From: Verrucomicrobiia bacterium
GTDB taxonomy: Bacteria; Verrucomicrobiota; Verrucomicrobiia; Chthoniobacterales; UBA6821
Assembly: GCA_040380225.1 (NCBI GenBank)
Contig: JBEIJN010000003.1
Location: forward strand, 26,306-90,305
DNA: 64,000 nucleotides
Direction: 5' to 3'
The position numbers were made by a program, and so were the translations under genes. Of this stretch, positions 3,068 through 45,102 are shown piece by piece; position 1 is the stretch's first letter, and each line of letters begins with the position of its first letter. The notes beneath the pieces were generated by a model. The model was given only the letters and a program-made list of their open reading frames with translations, did no database searches and was not told the DNA's origin.

Positions 3068-3170
3068 GGCACGTCAGGGGCTATGGATGAAAGACCGGTG
3101 AACCCCGCCAGGGCAGGAATGCAGCAACGGCAGCCAGCTCTCTCTTGCCGTAGTTCCCTGACACTCCTTT
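3068..3170 (+). ncRNA. ffs: Signal recognition particle RNA (small bacterial 4.5S type)
   Basis: Contains the domain IV signature CAGG-GCA-GGAA-UGC-AGCA: a GGAA tetraloop closed by 3 bp and flanked by the conserved CAGG/AGCA symmetric loop. The terminal helix pairs GUCAGGG (3073-3079) with CCCUGAC (3056-3062 of the line, i.e. 3156-3162). A T-run follows. Confidence 0.85.
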
Positions 3171-5727: not shown

Positions 5728-6120
5728 TCAGAAGCGTGAAAGGCATTCCCGCGGTGTCAGTATCGGGATGCCTTTGAATTCCTTGAGGACCAAGAGATCT
5801 TGATCGCCCGTCACCAGCAGATCGACTTTTGCGGCGTGGGCGGCTGCCAGCACATGGTCATCGTCCGAGTCACGGCATACTGCCGATGGGAGTGGGGGAG
5901 CCTCGGTCAATTCGGCATCACTTCGCACCGCCCGGATCACCTCGGAGGATTCGGCCTTGGAAAGCTTGGCCTTGGAGAGAAGCTTCTCCTCCAATTCGGA
6001 AAGTATCTCCTTGGATACGACGATCCGGGCGTGGAGCAGGGACTCTTCATAGAGGCCTGCGCACACTCCATGGGAGACAAAGGCCGCGAACAGGACATTC
6101 GTATCGAAGAGGATCCTCAT
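5728..6120 (-). CDS. PIN-domain toxin (VapC-like ribonuclease)
   Basis: 130 aa starting MRILFDTNVLF, with later acidic residues (DSDDDHVLAAA, LLVTGDQDL) typical of PIN toxins. An RHH antitoxin gene lies immediately upstream. Confidence 0.8.
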   Translation of the reverse strand: MRILFDTNVLFAAFVSHGVCAGLYEESLLHARIVVSKEILSELEEKLLSKAKLSKAESSEVIRAVRSDAELTEAPPLPSAVCRDSDDDHVLAAAHAAKVDLLVTGDQDLLVLKEFKGIPILTPRECLSRF

Positions 6121-6129
6121 GAGGGATCC

Positions 6130-6348
6130 TCAAGAGATCTCTTCAAAGACATCCTCATCGGTTGCAAAGCCGGCTTTGCGCCCCTTCGGTACGAGTTTCT
6201 CCCGTAAATTCCTGAAGCGCTCCAGAGCGATCTGCTTACGAAGGGCATCCTGCACTACCTGGCTCCGGCTCTTGCCGCTACTGCGAACCAAGGCGGCAAG
6301 ACCCTCGTTGATCTCCTCTGGCAAGCTGATCGTCAATGTTGCCCTCAT
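6130..6348 (-). CDS. Ribbon-helix-helix (CopG/Arc-like) antitoxin
   Basis: Start taken at MRATLTISLPEEINEGL (beta-strand then helix-helix pattern, SRSQVVQDALRKQI). It sits 10 nt upstream of the PIN gene. Confidence 0.7.
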   Translation of the reverse strand: MRATLTISLPEEINEGLAALVRSSGKSRSQVVQDALRKQIALERFRNLREKLVPKGRKAGFATDEDVFEEIS

Positions 6349-6435
6349 GTATTGGAATCTATTACAGCAAGTCAAAAAGTCAATCCTTTGACTGCTTCAA
6401 ACTCTCGGAATGTTTCTCATGTACCTTTCATCCCT

Positions 6436-6467
6436 TTCATCCCTGTGAGTCTTTTCCTGTCTTCCTG
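6436..6467. repeat. 32-bp perfect direct repeat, copy 2, upstream flank of the TA cassette
   Basis: Identical to 5643-5674. Related words occur at 43409-43434 and 39853-39866. Confidence 0.9.
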
Positions 6468-6493
6468 TTTTCCAGATTTTCATTATCCCAAAG

Positions 6494-6530
6494 AAAAAGG
6501 CCGCGCTCTTTCGGGCGCGGCCTTCTTGTT
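6494..6530. terminator. Bidirectional intrinsic terminator hairpin
   Basis: GGCCGCGC (6499-6506) pairs with GCGCGGCC (6515-6522), flanked by an A-run and a T-rich run. On the minus strand it follows the stop of the 6545-6895 gene with TTTTTCTTT. Confidence 0.75.
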
Positions 6531-6544
6531 GAGTTGTTGGAACC

Positions 6545-6895
6545 TCAGAGGTTCATCTTGATTCCTTGGCCCTGCGCCATGGCGGCGTGCTGTGCGTCGG
6601 TGCAGGGAGCATTCAGCGGAACGTCGGTCTTCACCTCGTTCGCCGTGACGACTCCCTTCTCGAGCATGTAGGCCTCGACCTCTTCGCCGCTGATGTCAGG
6701 CAGCATGACGCCGTTGATCTCCACGCAGGGGGAGAGGGGCTGTCCGCTCTTCTGCTCCATCTCGAAGCGGAAGGAGGGGTTCTTGATGATGTCCTTCTCC
6801 GTGTAGGGGAGGGAGTATTTGGCAAGAACCGCGCGGACTCCGTTGCTCCACCCGCAGGTGGTCTTGAGGTAGGCGGTGATTTCGGGCTGTGACAT
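6545..6895 (-). CDS. Glutaredoxin/thioredoxin-fold protein (CGWS motif)
   Basis: 116-aa product from the internal Met (MSQPEITAYLKTTCGWSNGVRAVL...VEINGVML), a glutaredoxin-like fold pattern. The longer ORF upstream is a shadow of rpsA. Confidence 0.6.
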   Translation of the reverse strand: MSQPEITAYLKTTCGWSNGVRAVLAKYSLPYTEKDIIKNPSFRFEMEQKSGQPLSPCVEINGVMLPDISGEEVEAYMLEKGVVTANEVKTDVPLNAPCTDAQHAAMAQGQGIKMNL

Positions 6896-6932
6896 GGTGT
6901 GTCGGGAGTTGGTCGTGATGAACCGGGAAGGA

Positions 6933-8624
6933 TTACTTCTTCCCTTGGCCTGGACGATACTCCTCCTCGGCGGCGGAGAGTGCCGCGCCGAAGCTGACCA
7001 TGTCCTCGCCGCTCTTGACGGTCTCGAGCGCCTCGCTCTCCTTGCGGAGTGCTTCCTCGCTGTAGCCGGTGGCCTTGATGGAGAGTCCGAGACGACGCTC
7101 GGTCTTGTCGATCTTGATGACGCGGGCCTCGACCTCCTGGCCGGGCTTGAGGACATCCTTGACCTTCTCGACACGGTCCTCGCTGATCTGCGAGATGTGG
7201 ACGAGTCCGTCGATGTCGCCGGGGAGTTCGATGAAGGCGCCGAAGTTGGCGATCTTGGAGACGGTTCCCTTGACGAGATCGCCGACCTTGAACTTGCCCT
7301 CGATCTCCTTCCAGGGATCGGTCTCGAGCTGCTTGACGCCGAGGCTGATGCGCTGGTTGGCCTTGTCGATGTCGATGACGACGGCATCCACCTCGTCGCC
7401 CTTCTTGAGGACTTCGCTCGGGTGGTTGATCTTCTTGGTCCAGCTGAGGTCGGAGACGTGCACCATGCCGTCGATGCCCTCCTCCAGCTCCACGAAGGCG
7501 CCGTAGGCGGTCATGTTGCGGACCTGGCCGCGGACCTGCTTGCCGATGATGTAGCGCTGCTCGATCTCGTCCCAAGGGTTGGGCTCGAGCTGGCGGACGC
7601 CGAGGGAGATCTTCTGATCAGCCTTGTTGACGCCGAGCACGACGGCCTCGATATCCTGACCGAGGGTGAGGACATCCGAAGGACGGGTGATGCGCTTGGT
7701 CCAGGAGAGCTCGGAGACGTGGATGAGTCCCTCGATTCCCTCCTCGATCTGAACGAACGCGCCGTAGGGCATGAGGTTCGTGATCTTTCCGCTAATCTTC
7801 TGGCCGATCGGGAAGCGCTCCTCGATGCGGTCCCAGGGATTGGACTGGAGCTGCTTGAGGCCGAGGCTGATGCGTTCCTTGTCCTTGTTGATCTCGAGGA
7901 CGACGACGGTGAGTCGGTCGCCGGGCTTGACTGCCTCGCTCGGATGGGTGAGGCGGGCCCAGGACATGTCGGTGATGTGGAGGAGTCCGTCGATGCCGTC
8001 GAGATCGAGGAAGGCCCCGAAGTCGGTGATGTTCTTGACGGTTCCCTCGACCTTGTCGCCGGCGCTCATGGTGCCGAGGAACTGCTGGCGGCGCTCACTG
8101 CGCTCGGCCTCGATGAGTTCGCGACGGCTGAGGACGACGTTCTTGCGGTCCTCGTTGAGCTTCACGATCTTGAAGTCGTAGGTGTTGCCCACAAACTGGG
8201 TGAGATCCTTCGGGGGATTGATGTCCACCTGGGAGGCGGGGAGGAAGGCCTCCACACCGACGTTGACGATCAGGCCGCCCTTCACGACGGACTTGACGCG
8301 GCCCTTGATGATGCCCTCGGCCTCGAACAGCTTCACGATCTTGGACCAGTTCTGGCGCTGCGAAGCCTTCTGCTTGGAAAGAATGACCATTCCCTGATCG
8401 TTCTCGAGGCGCTCGAGGAGAACCTCGACCTCGTCTCCGACCTGGATTTCGTCCGGATCATCGAATTCGGATGCGGAGACCACACCCTCGGACTTGTAGC
8501 CGATGTCGATGAGGAATTCCTTGGGGCGCTTCTCGAGGATGTGCCCCTTGACGATGCTGCCTTCGCGGTAGTTTTTGACCGAGGCGGCGATGAGTTGCTG
8601 AAGATCAGCCATTGATGTTGTCAT
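6933..8624 (-). CDS. rpsA: 30S ribosomal protein S1
   Basis: Six tandem S1 (OB-fold) repeats, each with GxVxxIxxFGAFVxL and GLxHxSExS patterns. Start placed at MTTSMADLQQ (8624); 8612 is an alternative. Confidence 0.9.
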   Translation of the reverse strand: MTTSMADLQQLIAASVKNYREGSIVKGHILEKRPKEFLIDIGYKSEGVVSASEFDDPDEIQVGDEVEVLLERLENDQGMVILSKQKASQRQNWSKIVKLFEAEGIIKGRVKSVVKGGLIVNVGVEAFLPASQVDINPPKDLTQFVGNTYDFKIVKLNEDRKNVVLSRRELIEAERSERRQQFLGTMSAGDKVEGTVKNITDFGAFLDLDGIDGLLHITDMSWARLTHPSEAVKPGDRLTVVVLEINKDKERISLGLKQLQSNPWDRIEERFPIGQKISGKITNLMPYGAFVQIEEGIEGLIHVSELSWTKRITRPSDVLTLGQDIEAVVLGVNKADQKISLGVRQLEPNPWDEIEQRYIIGKQVRGQVRNMTAYGAFVELEEGIDGMVHVSDLSWTKKINHPSEVLKKGDEVDAVVIDIDKANQRISLGVKQLETDPWKEIEGKFKVGDLVKGTVSKIANFGAFIELPGDIDGLVHISQISEDRVEKVKDVLKPGQEVEARVIKIDKTERRLGLSIKATGYSEEALRKESEALETVKSGEDMVSFGAALSAAEEEYRPGQGKK

Positions 8625-10383: not shown

Positions 10384-10424
10384 GGGAAAATTATGAAGGA
10401 TGAATTATGAATGATGAAGGGTTG
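10384..10424. repeat. Inverted-repeat arm (ATGAAGGATGAATTATGAATGATGAAGG) at the 3' flank of the four-helix-bundle cassette
   Basis: GATGAATTATGAATGATGAA (20 nt) recurs as a perfect reverse complement within 11046-11085. Confidence 0.85.
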
Positions 10425-11063
10425 AAGCCTTGGTTCTCTTTGAAATCGTCGTCAGGATGGCGATGAGCTCATCACATTCCCTGCTGAGTTCCTTGGTTTT
10501 CAGAAGCGGAAGAATGTCTGATTCAACCAGCAAATCCAACCAGTATGCGGTTTCATCGAGTTCTTTCAGGCAATCCCCGATCTTGGCAATGAACTCGTTT
10601 CTCGATCGGGATCGATTGGCTTCACGATAATTCGCTCCCACGGAAGTACCGGATCTCAGAACCTGTTTTCCCAGAGTTTGTGCCAGGGTATTTTTCGGAA
10701 GGGCGCTATAGAGCCTGATCACCCTAAGGAACCGCTGATTAAATCGCATAGAGGCCGTTGCGGGAAGAATGGGCCGCGGGCAAGGCGGCTTTGCGGGCGC
10801 ATCCCCGCAGTGGGCTGTAACCGCAAAGCCAACACAGCCCCCGGCCGGTTATCTCCGCAACCCGGAGGGCTGAAGCCATTTGTCGATTTTTCTGGCGTTG
10901 CTCGCTCGGGCGAGACCGCTGCGGGTATCGCCCAGCACTCGCGCCTTCAAAAATCAGCAAATGCTCTTCAGCGGCCTTCATGGGATTTAATCAGCGGTTC
11001 CCTAAGGGCGAATGTCTTCGTCCTAGCGGATAGGTCGGCGGCTGGTTTCTTTTCATCATTCAT
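10405..11063 (-). pseudogene. Four-helix-bundle protein gene (23S rRNA intervening-sequence protein / Avd-like, TIGR02436 type), interrupted by a 276-bp element
   Basis: The N-terminal piece (11063-11003) encodes MNDEKKPAADLSARTKTFAL. The C-terminal piece (10724-10405) encodes RVIRLYSALPKNTLAQTLGKQVLRSGTSVGANYREANRSRSRNEFIAKIGDCLKELDETAYWLDLL. Joining them after removing 278 nt gives a 126-aa in-frame product with the family pattern. Confidence 0.8.
10727..11002 (-). mobile_element. 276-bp non-autonomous TIR element (MITE-like), copy A, flanked by TA (10725-10726 and 11003-11004)
   Basis: About 95% identical by manual alignment (14 substitutions, no indels) to 43850-44125 in the opposite orientation. 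It has roughly 28-bp imperfect terminal inverted repeats (GGGAACCGCTGATTAAATCCCATGAAGG) and no credible ORF. Confidence 0.8.
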
Positions 11064-19434: not shown

Positions 19435-19693
19435 TGCCTGGTCGGGGACGACCGGCAGATAATTGGGCTGTTGGGATCGGAAGTAGACGCTAGGGGGTTA
19501 GGCTCTAGGCTTCTAGGATCTGAAGAGAGACTTTCCCTCAATTTGTTAATCAGATTGCCTGGCGCCATCTTGGTGAACGCTCCGGATCTGTTGCCATGGT
19601 TCCATTGCACAATCCGGGGTAATCGAAAAAGGCCGATCGAGCCGTTCCTTCGTTGCCCCGGGGAGTGCGGTATGATACTCAATTCCTTTGGCA

Positions 19694-19765
19694 GACCCCG
19701 TAGTTCAACGGATAGAATAGGAGTTTCCTAAACTCTAGATGGTGGTTCGATTCCACCCGGGGTCA
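19694..19765 (+). tRNA. tRNA-Arg (anticodon CCT)
   Basis: Manual cloverleaf: acceptor GACCCCG/CGGGGTC, D arm GTTC..GAAT, anticodon stem GGAGT/ACTCT with loop TTCCTAA, T arm GGTGG-TTCGATT-CCACC, discriminator A. CCA is not encoded. Confidence 0.9.
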
Positions 19766-19769
19766 GTTT

Positions 19770-20231
19770 TTATGGTTCCGGGTCAGATTCCGGTTGAGCC
19801 GTCGTGCTCTTTGCAGTCGTGGTCTTTGCAGTCGTGGTCTTTGCAGTTGTCGCCTTTGCAGTTGAGGTCTTTGCAGTCGTGGCCGCTGTAGCCGCTGGCT
19901 TGGGTTCGGGCTTCAGGTTAATGGTCATGGTTTGGGCCTTTTGCTTGGCTTCCATCATCTTCATTCCCTTGGCGGAGAAGGCCCTTTCGTAGAGTTTCCT
20001 CAGGTCAACCTCGCTGATTCCGTAGACGTCACTTAGATTCAGGCTTGGGAGGTCGGTCTTGAGGGCTTCAAAATGTTCTTTGAACACCTCCTTCTGGGCC
20101 TCGACTTTTGCTTTCTTGTCATCTTCTTCTTTCTTCAGATCTGCGGCGGTTTTTACTTTGGTTGCCGCGTTCAGCGGGGAGGCAGTGATTGCAAGAAGGA
20201 GGGGGCAGATAATGAGGAGGATGTGTTTCAT
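19770..20231 (-). CDS. Secreted protein with a C-terminal (T/A)TAKT tandem repeat
   Basis: Start at MKHILLIICPLLLAITASPLNA (signal peptide). The C-terminus reads TAKTSTAKATTAKTTTAKTTTAKSTTA, encoded by 15-bp tandem repeats at about 19800-19880. Confidence 0.6.
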   Translation of the reverse strand: MKHILLIICPLLLAITASPLNAATKVKTAADLKKEEDDKKAKVEAQKEVFKEHFEALKTDLPSLNLSDVYGISEVDLRKLYERAFSAKGMKMMEAKQKAQTMTINLKPEPKPAATAATTAKTSTAKATTAKTTTAKTTTAKSTTAQPESDPEP

Positions 20232-43187: not shown

Positions 43188-43558
43188 CCCGGATTTTGTA
43201 TTTAGGGAACCGATGCGAAGAGTTAAAAGGGTTGGCTCCTCGCTGTTTCAATGGGGTGAACAAAGGAATCAGTGAAAAATCAGAAAACAGGAAAACAAGA
43301 GGTGATACCACCGAGGAAACAGTCGAGGCCCATAACCGAGCTTGCGTAGTCACTCATTCGACCAGCCTCAGCATGCCACAGCAATCGCATTCATGACCAC
43401 TCCAGCAAGTTCTTCCTGCTTTCCTGCTTTCCAGATTAAAAAACTCCCCGTCGGCTTTTAACCGTTTAAACAGCTCAACTTTTTAACCCGATCGCCATGC
43501 ACCATACAGGTGAACGCTTCAGATATGTTTTCATGGTTCCATTGCTAAAAAACCCGCT

Positions 43559-44412
43559 GTGAATCCCATGAAGCCGCTGGCACGTTCCTTCTTCAAGCGG
43601 GACGCGGTGCTCTGCGCCCGTGAGTTGATCGGATGCACGCTGGGTCTTGCGGGAACCTCCGGCGTCATTGTCGAGACCGAGGCCTATGCGGCCGAGGGTG
43701 ATCCCGCCTGCCATACCTGGAATCGGCAGGGAGCACGCGATTTCGTTTCCAGCAATGCCCCCGGAACCGCCTATGTCTACCTGAACTACGGGATGCATTG
43801 GCTCTTCAACCTGCTCGTGAAGGGAGGCGAGCGGGATGGTTTTGTCCCAGGGAACCGCTGATTAAATCCCATGAAGGACGCTGAATAGCATTTGCTGATT
43901 TTTGAAGGCGTGAGTGCTGGGCGATACCCGCAGCGGTCTCGCCCGAGCGAGCAACGCCACAAAAATCGACAAATGGCTTCAGCCCTCCGGGTTGCGGAGA
44001 TAACAGGCCGGGGGCTGTGTTGGCTTGGCGCTTACAGCCCACTGCGGGGATGCTCGCGCCAAGCCGCCTTGCCCGCCGCCCATTCTTTCCGCAACGGCCT
44101 CTATGCGATTTAATCAGCGATTCCCTAATCAGGGCCTTGGAGCCGCTCGGTGGAGTCGACCTGATGCAGGAGCGCAGGCGGCGCGGGAAGGTGGAGGAAC
44201 TCTGCAATGGTCCCGCCAAGCTCACCCAAGCGCTCGGGATCACTGGTGATCACCATGAAGTCGACCCGCTCTCGGCAAAGGGATGGGTCCTGACGGAACC
44301 CCGGTCAACGGTCGCCACGATCACCTCGACGCGGATCGGAATCTCCCAAGCTACCGACTATCCGTGGCGCTTCGTCATGAAGGGGAGTCGCTGCGTGAGC
44401 GTTCCTGTGTAG
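43559..44412 (+). pseudogene. DNA-3-methyladenine glycosylase (MPG/AAG family, PF02245) gene interrupted by a 276-bp element
   Basis: The N-terminal piece ends ...LLVKGGERDGFV (codon GTC at 43844-43846), then runs into the element and stops. The C-terminal piece resumes at 44125 with LIRALEPLGG...NGPAKLTQALGI...RIGIS...PWRF. Removing 278 nt rejoins GFV|LIRALEP in frame. Confidence 0.85.
43850..44125 (+). mobile_element. 276-bp non-autonomous TIR element (MITE-like), copy B, flanked by CA (43848-43849) and TA (44126-44127)
   Basis: TIRs are GGGAACCGCTGATTAAATCCCATGAAGG and, at the other end, the reverse complement of GGGAATCGCTGATTAAATCGCATAGAGG. The interior is GC-rich and hairpin-dense. It is the inverted homolog of 10727-11002. 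Confidence 0.8.
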
Positions 44413-44502: not shown

Positions 44503-44616
44503 TTACTTGCTTTTGCAAGGGGCGGGGTTCGTGCAGCACTGCTTGTGGCAGCATGCGCCGAGGGTAAGGGAAGCCACCGCGAGGGCGACGACCGCTGCGA
44601 TCTTGGTGATGGTCAT
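44503..44616 (-). CDS. Small Cys-rich lipoprotein (37 aa), below the ORF-track size cutoff
   Basis: Hand translation gives MTITKIAAVVALAVASLTLGACCHKQCCTNPAPCKSK. AGGAGG lies 8 nt upstream of the ATG, and there is a signal peptide plus a lipobox-like LGAC. A terminator lies downstream. Confidence 0.65.
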   Translation of the reverse strand: MTITKIAAVVALAVASLTLGACCHKQCCTNPAPCKSK

Positions 44617-44798
44617 GATATAGTTCGCCTCCTTTCTCAGCTGGTTGCTCTGAGTGAAAACATAACCCCCGATGCTGTCGGAACCAATGCGAAAGATCTA
44701 ACGAAGACGCTTAGGAAAAAGTGAAAAGTTGAAAGGTGGAAAAGTGGGAAAGGTCCGCGTTGATGGCCGAGTGCGTGAAGGGATAGGGAAAGAAAAAA

Positions 44799-44874: not shown

Positions 44875-44988
44875 TTACTTGCTCTTCACGCTGGTGGCGG
44901 GAGCGGGAGCCTGCTTGCTGGCGCAGGCACCGAGGGTGAGGGTTGCGGCCGCGAGGGCGACAACTGCTGCGATCTTGGTGATGGTCAT
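44875..44988 (-). CDS. Small lipoprotein (37 aa), paralog of 44503-44616
   Basis: Hand translation gives MTITKIAAVVALAAATLTLGACASKQAPAPATSVKSK. It has the same RBS context and signal peptide as its neighbour, but the mature part has diverged. Confidence 0.65.
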   Translation of the reverse strand: MTITKIAAVVALAAATLTLGACASKQAPAPATSVKSK

Positions 44989-45102
44989 GGAATATTTCGC
45001 CTCCTTTCTTTGCTGGTTGCGTTGTCGGGAAATTAAAGCCGACAGCCCCCGTCACAAAGAAAATTTCCTGATTTTTTTGCGAGGTGCCCGAAATTCCCAA
45101 AA

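Follow-up and report, generated by a model that had tools for sequence, protein, structure and literature searches.

Compensatory changes preserve a Y-shaped fold in a family of IS5-group MITEs with two copies in a Verrucomicrobiia genome

We find that two inverted repeats within a 64,000-nt stretch of a Verrucomicrobiia bacterium genome (the window) are copies of one 274-bp non-autonomous transposon, an IS5-group MITE of the IS5 family, and that the Y-shaped fold of this element is maintained throughout its family, changes in one partner of many base pairs being matched by changes in the other. As the cause of this conservation we favour, with a probability of roughly 0.55, selection on transposition competence acting on a DNA-level form of the element over correction by template switching. 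Structure-preserving compensatory changes in bacterial MITE-like repeats are already known, e.g. from bcr1; what appears to be new is this family, the Y-shaped double hairpin it forms and the way in which its shared variants contrast with its private ones.

An inverted-repeat search of the window returned one pair (10725-11003 / 43849-44127; 279 nt, 95% complementary). It contains copy B (43851..44124, plus strand; GGAACCGCTGATTAAATC...GATTTAATCAGCGATTCC) and, inverted relative to it, copy A (10728..11001, minus strand), each 274 nt long. Both copies are supported by the inverted-repeat pair and by TIR matches, their limits being set by the ends common to the family and by target-site duplications; for copy B there is also an empty site. 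A gap-free alignment of the two copies shows 14 differences, 13 within the 274-nt element (95.26% identity) and 1 in the flanking target duplication, which bears out the 14 differences without indels that an earlier note on this DNA had counted by hand. Four of the 13 element differences combine into two compensated pairs, one G-C to T-A and one C-G to G-C, in a 10-bp stem, the arms of which lie at 44022..44031 (GGCTTGGCGC; variable positions 44027, 44030 and 44031) and 44056..44065 (GCGCCAAGCC; variable positions 44056, 44057 and 44060) on the plus strand of copy B. In copy A, stem and loop occupy 10787..10830 on the minus strand, with the arms GGCTTTGCGG (10787-10796) and CCGCAAAGCC (10821-10830). 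Copies A and B thus hold two different stem 'alleles'. The earlier note gave the coordinates and sequences of this stem exactly in both copies, and its hand alignment is correct at the four compensated positions. The two compensatory pairs that it proposed are hard to ascribe to chance: when 13 random substitutions were placed on the fold of copy B, at least two compensated Watson-Crick pairs arose in 0.18% of 200,000 simulations (probability 0.0018). Its description of the other helices fared less well. The terminal stem, said to be unchanged, differs at element position 5/270, which is a C·A mismatch in copy B and C-G in copy A, and the CTCCG/CGGAG helix is without family support; its 5' arm overlaps the hypervariable columns 141-143 and its 3' arm never compensates.

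Each copy splits a gene, and recent MITE insertion explains the two split genes of the window, one for a methylpurine-DNA glycosylase and one for a 23S rRNA-intervening-sequence (23S-IVS, four-helix-bundle) protein. Copy B separates the N-terminal part of the glycosylase (43559..43850, plus strand; PF02245 profile positions 1-81 of 181) from its C-terminal part (44125..44412, plus strand; profile positions 91-180 of 181), and in-silico excision of the copy together with one duplication yields an intact glycosylase ORF of 191 aa. An ortholog with 94% identity, P0001, is intact at 188 aa. The orthologous locus (L236/L237) is syntenic (YchF-NIF3-MPG-YkuD-Asd), with 92-94% nucleotide identity to the window, and presents the empty site GTC CTAA TCAG, the counterpart of which in the window reads GTC CCAG (element) CTAA TCAG. 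The right target-site duplication of copy B (44125..44128, plus strand) is therefore CTAA, a YTAR site, and the left target-site copy (43847..43850, plus strand) is CCAG instead of the expected CTAA, i.e. two substitutions away from the empty site. Copy A is inserted after codon 19-20 of the 23S-IVS gene: the C-terminal part of the protein is encoded at 10405..10727 (minus strand; PF05635 profile positions 14-105 of 106) and the N-terminal 19 codons lie on the far side of the copy, at 11006..11063 (minus strand). Its target duplication (10724-10727 and 11002-11005; CTAA/CTAA) is perfect, and in-silico excision with one duplication gives a single 23S-IVS ORF (MNDEKKPAADLSARTKTFALRVIRLY...).

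Copies of the element are present at many unrelated loci (51 unique flank pairs). Identical 4-bp flanks occur at 24 of the 47 unique insertion sites for which both flanks are available, and 23 of these 24 are YTAR (CTAA, CTAG, TTAA, TTAG); a 4-bp YTAR target duplication is the hallmark of the IS5 group. The boundaries of 274 nt follow from the family-wide ends and the target duplications. For the 18-nt TIR GGAACCGCTGATTAAATC there are 4 matches in the window, compared with 0.04 expected, and the ends of the element pair over ~29 bp in individual folds and in the majority structure. TIR and similarity searches of the window detected no further diverged copies. With its TIRs and target duplications, small size, lack of any conserved ORF, dispersed copies and an empty site, the element has the features by which MITEs are recognized.

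The same ends are found far beyond this family. We scanned one genome per species with a degenerate 19-mer representing the TIR (596 Gb; ~17 chance matches expected by our own estimate); as single-end matches (e.g. in Providencia and Dialister) may be due to chance, the analysis relied solely on paired ends that carry duplications. Such paired ends with YTAR duplications occur in Bacillota, Spirochaetota, Verrucomicrobiota, Acidobacteriota and Pseudomonadota. The scan returned many short elements of 27 to ~420 nt that carry the same ends in inverted orientation, mostly with identical 4-bp YTAR flanks, as well as elements of 1.2 kb at loci L067 (1627-2826) and L081 (~5992-7200) that have these ends and YTAR duplications too. 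The protein of the L081 element matches Pfam DUF772 and DDE_Tnp_1 (transposase), that of the L067 element matches DUF772 in its N-terminal half, the sole part scanned, and plasmid homologs of the L081 element, which is from Cupriavidus, are annotated as IS5 family. A 1,159-nt 'element' at locus L114 was discarded: it consists of two unrelated ends around an ordinary gene. The MITE thus has in common with IS5-family insertion sequences the TIRs of a 1.2-kb IS encoding DUF772 and DDE_Tnp_1 and the 4-bp YTAR duplication, and it resembles the MITE derivatives of this family in being short, devoid of a transposase and dispersed in many copies. Other IS5-type MITEs are MITE Aba12 of Acinetobacter and an IS5-related MITE of Porphyromonas gingivalis. 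Our element differs from both groups in its interior, a Y-shaped double hairpin kept by covariation, to which the interior of the full-length IS5-type IS is unrelated; only ~21 nt of the end can be aligned. A tblastn search with an IS5 transposase found none in the 64-kb window, and the verrucomicrobial and lake loci retrieved, which are genome fragments only, yielded no cognate full-length IS.

Two other classes of palindromic element were considered and rejected. IS200/IS605-type elements and REP/RAYT repeats have neither TIRs nor a target duplication, and their subterminal hairpins are recognized as single-stranded DNA; the TIRs and 4-bp duplications found here rule both out. Rickettsia palindromic elements keep the reading frame of the host gene upon insertion, whereas the present element adds 274 + 4 = 278 nt, which is not a multiple of three, and the glycosylase frame reaches a stop four codons into copy B.

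For the family alignment, metagenome loci (n = 120) were fetched by an exact pattern from the left arm of the element, away from the 10-bp stem; the right arm was part of neither search pattern. Metagenome and genome loci together yielded 59 full-length copies from 51 distinct sites; the 48 unique copies were aligned, and copies were recovered by BLAST without alignment ambiguity. The named relatives that carry the element are Chthoniobacterales, Spartobacteria or Verrucomicrobiota MAGs, and further copies come from lake metagenomes; the MITE family defined here is abundant in freshwater Chthoniobacterales/'Spartobacteria' genomes.

RNAalifold predicts a Y shape, which most single-sequence folds share: an outer stem of ~29 bp, formed by both ends, carries two hairpins of ~100 nt. 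The same shape is obtained with DNA parameters, and the folding z-score against shuffled sequences is -10.4 as RNA and -7.8 as DNA. In copy B (plus strand), the halves of the outer stem are located at 43851..43879, including the left TIR (43851-43868), and at 44096..44124, including the right TIR (44107-44124); the pairs 12-272, 15-270 and 28-257 of this stem covary. The left arm (43880..43983) is an imperfect hairpin of ~104 nt with covarying pairs 42-126 (UA 23, GC 17) and 74-91. It is the most conserved part of the element; its alignment columns 45-73 are fixed by the metagenome search pattern, and it is the least variable part also among the genome copies ascertained by their TIRs. The right arm (43991..44095), an imperfect hairpin of ~105 nt, holds the 10-bp stem and covaries at 164-237, 169-232 and 171-230. 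The two arms do not appear to be duplicates of each other, as local alignments between them, tried in both orientations, do not score outside the shuffled range.

Across the 48-copy alignment, 96.2% of the cells of the 104-pair Y structure are paired. Both sides have changed in 18 pairs (149 cells), compared with 12.2±1.6 pairs and 52±8 cells in shuffled alignments (0/500 reaching the observed values); slid controls gave 5-12 pairs and 5-27 cells. The substitutions thus respect pairing in the larger alignment, and the 10-bp stem noticed in two copies holds in 48-86 copies. No part of the fold shows this more strongly than that stem, where three pairs out of ten are hypervariable and yet nearly always complementary. 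Its three variable pairs, 184-217 (GC 25, CG 17, UA 3), 187-214 (GC 23, AU 23) and 188-213 (CG 29, GC 15, UA 1), are 94-96% Watson-Crick and occupy ranks 1-3 by mutual information among 2,628 variable column pairs in a scan blind to structure; rank 4 is another predicted pair of the Y fold. One of six fully complementary 10-bp haplotypes is present in 51 of 86 non-redundant right arms, and a seventh has an extra T-A at the last pair. The type of copy B was counted 6 times among the 86 right arms and that of copy A once.

At least 5-6 independent compensatory events are needed for the observed haplotypes of the 10-bp stem. When a tree is computed from the remaining columns, each variable pair of the stem changes allele 8-11 times along it, and one copy combines the 5' arm of one stem allele with the 3' arm of another. 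This repeated switching and the mixed-arm copy probably reflect recombination between copies that reshuffles a few old alleles, and with recombination the cell counts greatly overstate the number of independent compensatory events.

The earlier note held that the fold, rather than a protein, is under selection, and the absence of constraint at the protein level is borne out. Variable columns are spread over the three codon positions as 28/23/22, i.e. the element shows no coding signal, and in 13 of 48 copies the length of the segment aligning to the copy B ORF is not a multiple of three; the flat counts and the indivisible lengths rule out a protein-coding element. Conservation of intrastrand pairing likewise stands. 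Selection as its cause is less secure, given that template switching can yield the same pattern (PMC8794818).

We compared alleles private to one copy with alleles shared between copies. Singleton alleles amount to 0.39 per paired column and 0.50 per unpaired column, whereas alleles present in at least two copies amount to 0.31 per paired and 0.74 per unpaired column, and are thus 2.4-fold rarer in stems. Of the singletons in stems, 13 produce G·U and 12 A·C, 23 produce other mismatches and 5 give Watson-Crick pairs. Loops may simply have a higher mutability, and this would look like purifying selection on the stems; the 'singletons', moreover, may include members of unsampled sublineages rather than post-insertion decay. 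Singletons ignore the fold and shared alleles respect it; we take this to mean that inserted copies decay almost neutrally, and that the lineages that went on to be copied kept the fold.

This contrast underlies our preferred reading, in which the constraint would concern the propagation of the element itself and not a host function of each inserted copy. Shared variants would be those present in elements that made new copies, and would therefore avoid stems or be compensated; private variants would be mutations acquired after insertion, which strike stems almost as often as loops and break pairs. Lacking strand asymmetry, the constraint is, we think, one that acts on DNA, although neutral decay would likewise give no strand asymmetry. 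A likely form would be intrastrand fold-back or cruciform pairing that brings the two ends together, so that the folded element may be a better substrate for a putative IS5-type transposase supplied in trans. IS5-family transposases are not known to require a folded substrate. The shared/private contrast and the strand symmetry point to element propagation at the DNA level and away from a host RNA function; if this were shown experimentally, it would change the view of what IS5-type transposases accept as substrates. As a clean and well-sampled case, the family also bears on the long-standing problem of why bacterial MITEs retain their stable folds.

The main rival is template-switch self-correction, in which a polymerase copies the opposite arm of a quasipalindrome and a change is erased or complemented in one step, with no function needed. 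Template-switch mutation is documented in microbes and fits compensatory changes in RNA genes (PMC8794818). In its favour, transversion swaps without a wobble intermediate make up about half of the compensated switches in our family (G-C to C-G at 184-217 and 188-213, U-A to A-U at 12-272 and 15-270, U-A to G-C at 42-126), and both the strand symmetry of the pattern and its recurrence in unrelated palindromic MITEs agree with it. As at the known quasipalindrome template-switch hotspots (PMC8794818), the inverted repeats are imperfect and both arms change together; those hotspots, however, represent a mutational process and not an element, and here conserved mismatches adjoin covarying pairs. 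Indeed, conserved mismatches and a 3x3 internal loop lie 1-3 nt from covarying pairs and were never 'repaired' in 48 copies; the A191·C210 mismatch is never complementary, and T189, T190 and A191 are invariant in 48/48 copies. Moreover, 48 private stem mismatches remain as against ~5 private changes that are still paired, the 2.4-fold deficit of shared variants per stem column is not what unbiased arm-to-arm copying alone predicts, and the covarying TIR pairs 12-272 and 15-270 bridge ~260 nt. The invariant neighbouring mismatches and the lasting private ones make template switching unlikely as the sole cause, and we regard it overall as a serious but rather unlikely explanation.

It seems improbable that the fold is selected as RNA, be it a cis-acting mRNA element, a host sRNA or an RNA that the transposon itself requires. 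In favour of RNA, covariation is classically the mark of structured RNA, and the two window copies are oriented alike with respect to their interrupted genes. An RNA transcribed from one strand would be expected to tolerate G·U and to avoid A·C, but among pairs with a Watson-Crick majority state the two are equally frequent (63 G·T and 66 A·C cells, p = 0.86; 14 and 13 pair-columns when only shared cases are counted), and this equality disfavours the RNA reading. Invariant wobble-type mismatches are present in both senses, invariant A·C juxtapositions lying on the same strand as invariant G·U pairs, and both strands fold about equally well, the minus strand slightly better in 43 of 48 copies. 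At the gathering threshold, Rfam models matched only tRNA and SRP RNA in the window, and over the element nothing credible was found at E ≤ 10 (best E-value 2), so that no Rfam family is matched; a consensus scan of the element revealed no promoter-like or terminator-like site. Nor is there a clear orientation bias with respect to neighbouring genes (22 vs 13 upstream, 16 vs 17 downstream) in a crude scan of stop-to-stop ORFs, noisy enough to label the known glycosylase gene wrongly. Stems are not spared by private mutations, and both window copies destroy genes. The earlier note had named RNA, single-stranded DNA and cruciform DNA as possible levels of selection; the first of these is not favoured by the G·T and A·C counts, the Rfam searches or the promoter and terminator scan. 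RNA-gene discovery pipelines should take note of the family, since mobile palindromic DNA can give strong covariation.

Coincidence or an alignment artefact, conceivable as long as the four matched differences were known from two copies only, is effectively refuted by the gap-free alignment within the element, the simulated probability of 0.0018 and the covariation of the same three pairs in 48-86 further copies.

The closest precedent, in the Bacillus cereus group, is the small repeat bcr1, which shares properties with nonautonomous transposable elements (PMC3184786). Like our element, it is dispersed, is flanked by short direct repeats and has a double-stranded fold maintained by compensatory changes. 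In contrast, it is ~155 bp long, has 5-bp direct repeats, belongs to Bacillota and has been reported to be transcribed, with its structural constraint read at the RNA level, a point in favour of RNA that has to be set against the evidence above (PMC3184786); our element is of the IS5 type, has 274 bp and shows no strand asymmetry. Stable folds are a classic feature of MITEs in general (PMC3184786). The enterobacterial ERIC/IRU and the neisserial Correia MITEs (PMC3184786) are comparable as imperfect palindromes that fold as long stem-loops and are inserted in genes or close to them, but they use TA target sites, measure 104-157 bp and have dissimilar ends, and Correia elements carry IHF sites and promoters. 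The proposal that the conserved stem goes beyond what a passive MITE requires is only partly upheld, with bcr1 as precedent and two further MITE families behaving alike. In its favour, TIRs alone are thought to be enough for mobilization. For ERIC, too, Wilson & Sharp (2006) reportedly described structure-related constraint.

The two further MITE families, of 89 nt and 108 nt, are represented mainly by copies from one Oscillospiraceae MAG. They have the same TIR as our element and interiors unrelated to it, and compensated pairs are present in their internal hairpins as well, which points to a general property of such elements and not to a special RNA in this genome. A bolder extension, which we consider doubtful, would unite all elements with the same 18-nt ends in one cross-phylum superfamily of IS5-group MITEs that obligatorily propagates via a folded intrastrand DNA intermediate; such elements could carry any interior able to pair with itself, and the fold, in addition to the TIRs, would be part of the substrate of the IS5-type transposase.

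The 18-nt terminal inverted repeats (TIRs) of the 274-bp element are not confined to copies of its own length: identical ends, together with YTAR duplications, flank MITEs of varied lengths at the genome-contig loci recovered by our TIR scan (L001-L115). The MAGs carrying these loci are labelled as Bacillota, Spirochaetota, Verrucomicrobiota, Acidobacteriota and Pseudomonadota, and one Oscillospiraceae MAG (JAFUOZ01) alone contains numerous 89-nt and 108-nt MITE copies with the same 18-nt ends; some of the single-end matches in the scan may have arisen by chance. Longer relatives, at L115 (2391-2686), L113 (2088-2445) and L107 (771-1130), measure 296–360 nt and keep the ends. The L115 and L113 relatives also retain the left arm of the Y-shaped fold; in them the right arm has been swapped out, or an additional hairpin is found within the apical loop of the left arm. 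This suggests that hairpin cassettes are exchanged as modules. There is also a derivative of ~160 nt, in which the two apical loops are apparently joined.

In our alignment of 48 unique full-length copies (A2), variability clusters in a few discrete columns, namely 141-143, 5/279, 39, 153, 241 and 247. Columns 141-143 correspond to a hypervariable 3-base loop (43986-43988 in copy B), which occurs in numerous distinct versions among the 48 copies and is flanked by invariant CCC and GGG. Columns 5/279 represent TIR position 5 and its partner; they covary weakly and form a Watson-Crick pair in 24 of the 48 copies.

At MITE copy B, the target site on the left (43847-43850) reads CCAG; the one on the right and the empty site of the syntenic glycosylase ortholog read CTAA. 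The left site thus carries two substitutions in 4 nt, despite an identity of 92–94% between the surrounding gene and its relatives. The outward-facing end of copy A (10728-10749, minus strand) provides an ATG (MRFNQRF...) in frame with the remaining 23S-IVS ORF, and for this reason a truncated 114-aa fusion ORF is called at 10405-10749; the corresponding ATG in copy B does not share the reading frame of the glycosylase.

Other repeats are present in the window as well. A 72-nt direct repeat (78% identity) occurs at 19537-19608 and 43474-43545, where one copy precedes a tRNA gene by ~90 nt and the other lies immediately upstream of the glycosylase gene; each copy could encode on its minus strand a short peptide with a common RSPxWxxAI motif. 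The tRNA gene at 19694-19765 is followed, after a gap of about 20 nt, by 6–8 tandem copies of a 15-nt unit (GCAGTCGTGGTCTTT-like; 19783-19902). On the minus strand, 44539-44648 and 44911-45020 form a repeat of 110 nt with 84% identity that looks ordinary. It corresponds to the beginnings of two small paralogous genes in tandem, from the ribosome-binding site through the start codon to a signal peptide with a lipobox-like L-G-A-C; both genes probably encode lipoproteins. An ordinary housekeeping RNA, the bacterial small SRP RNA, lies at 3072-3166 (Rfam RF00169, 59 bits).
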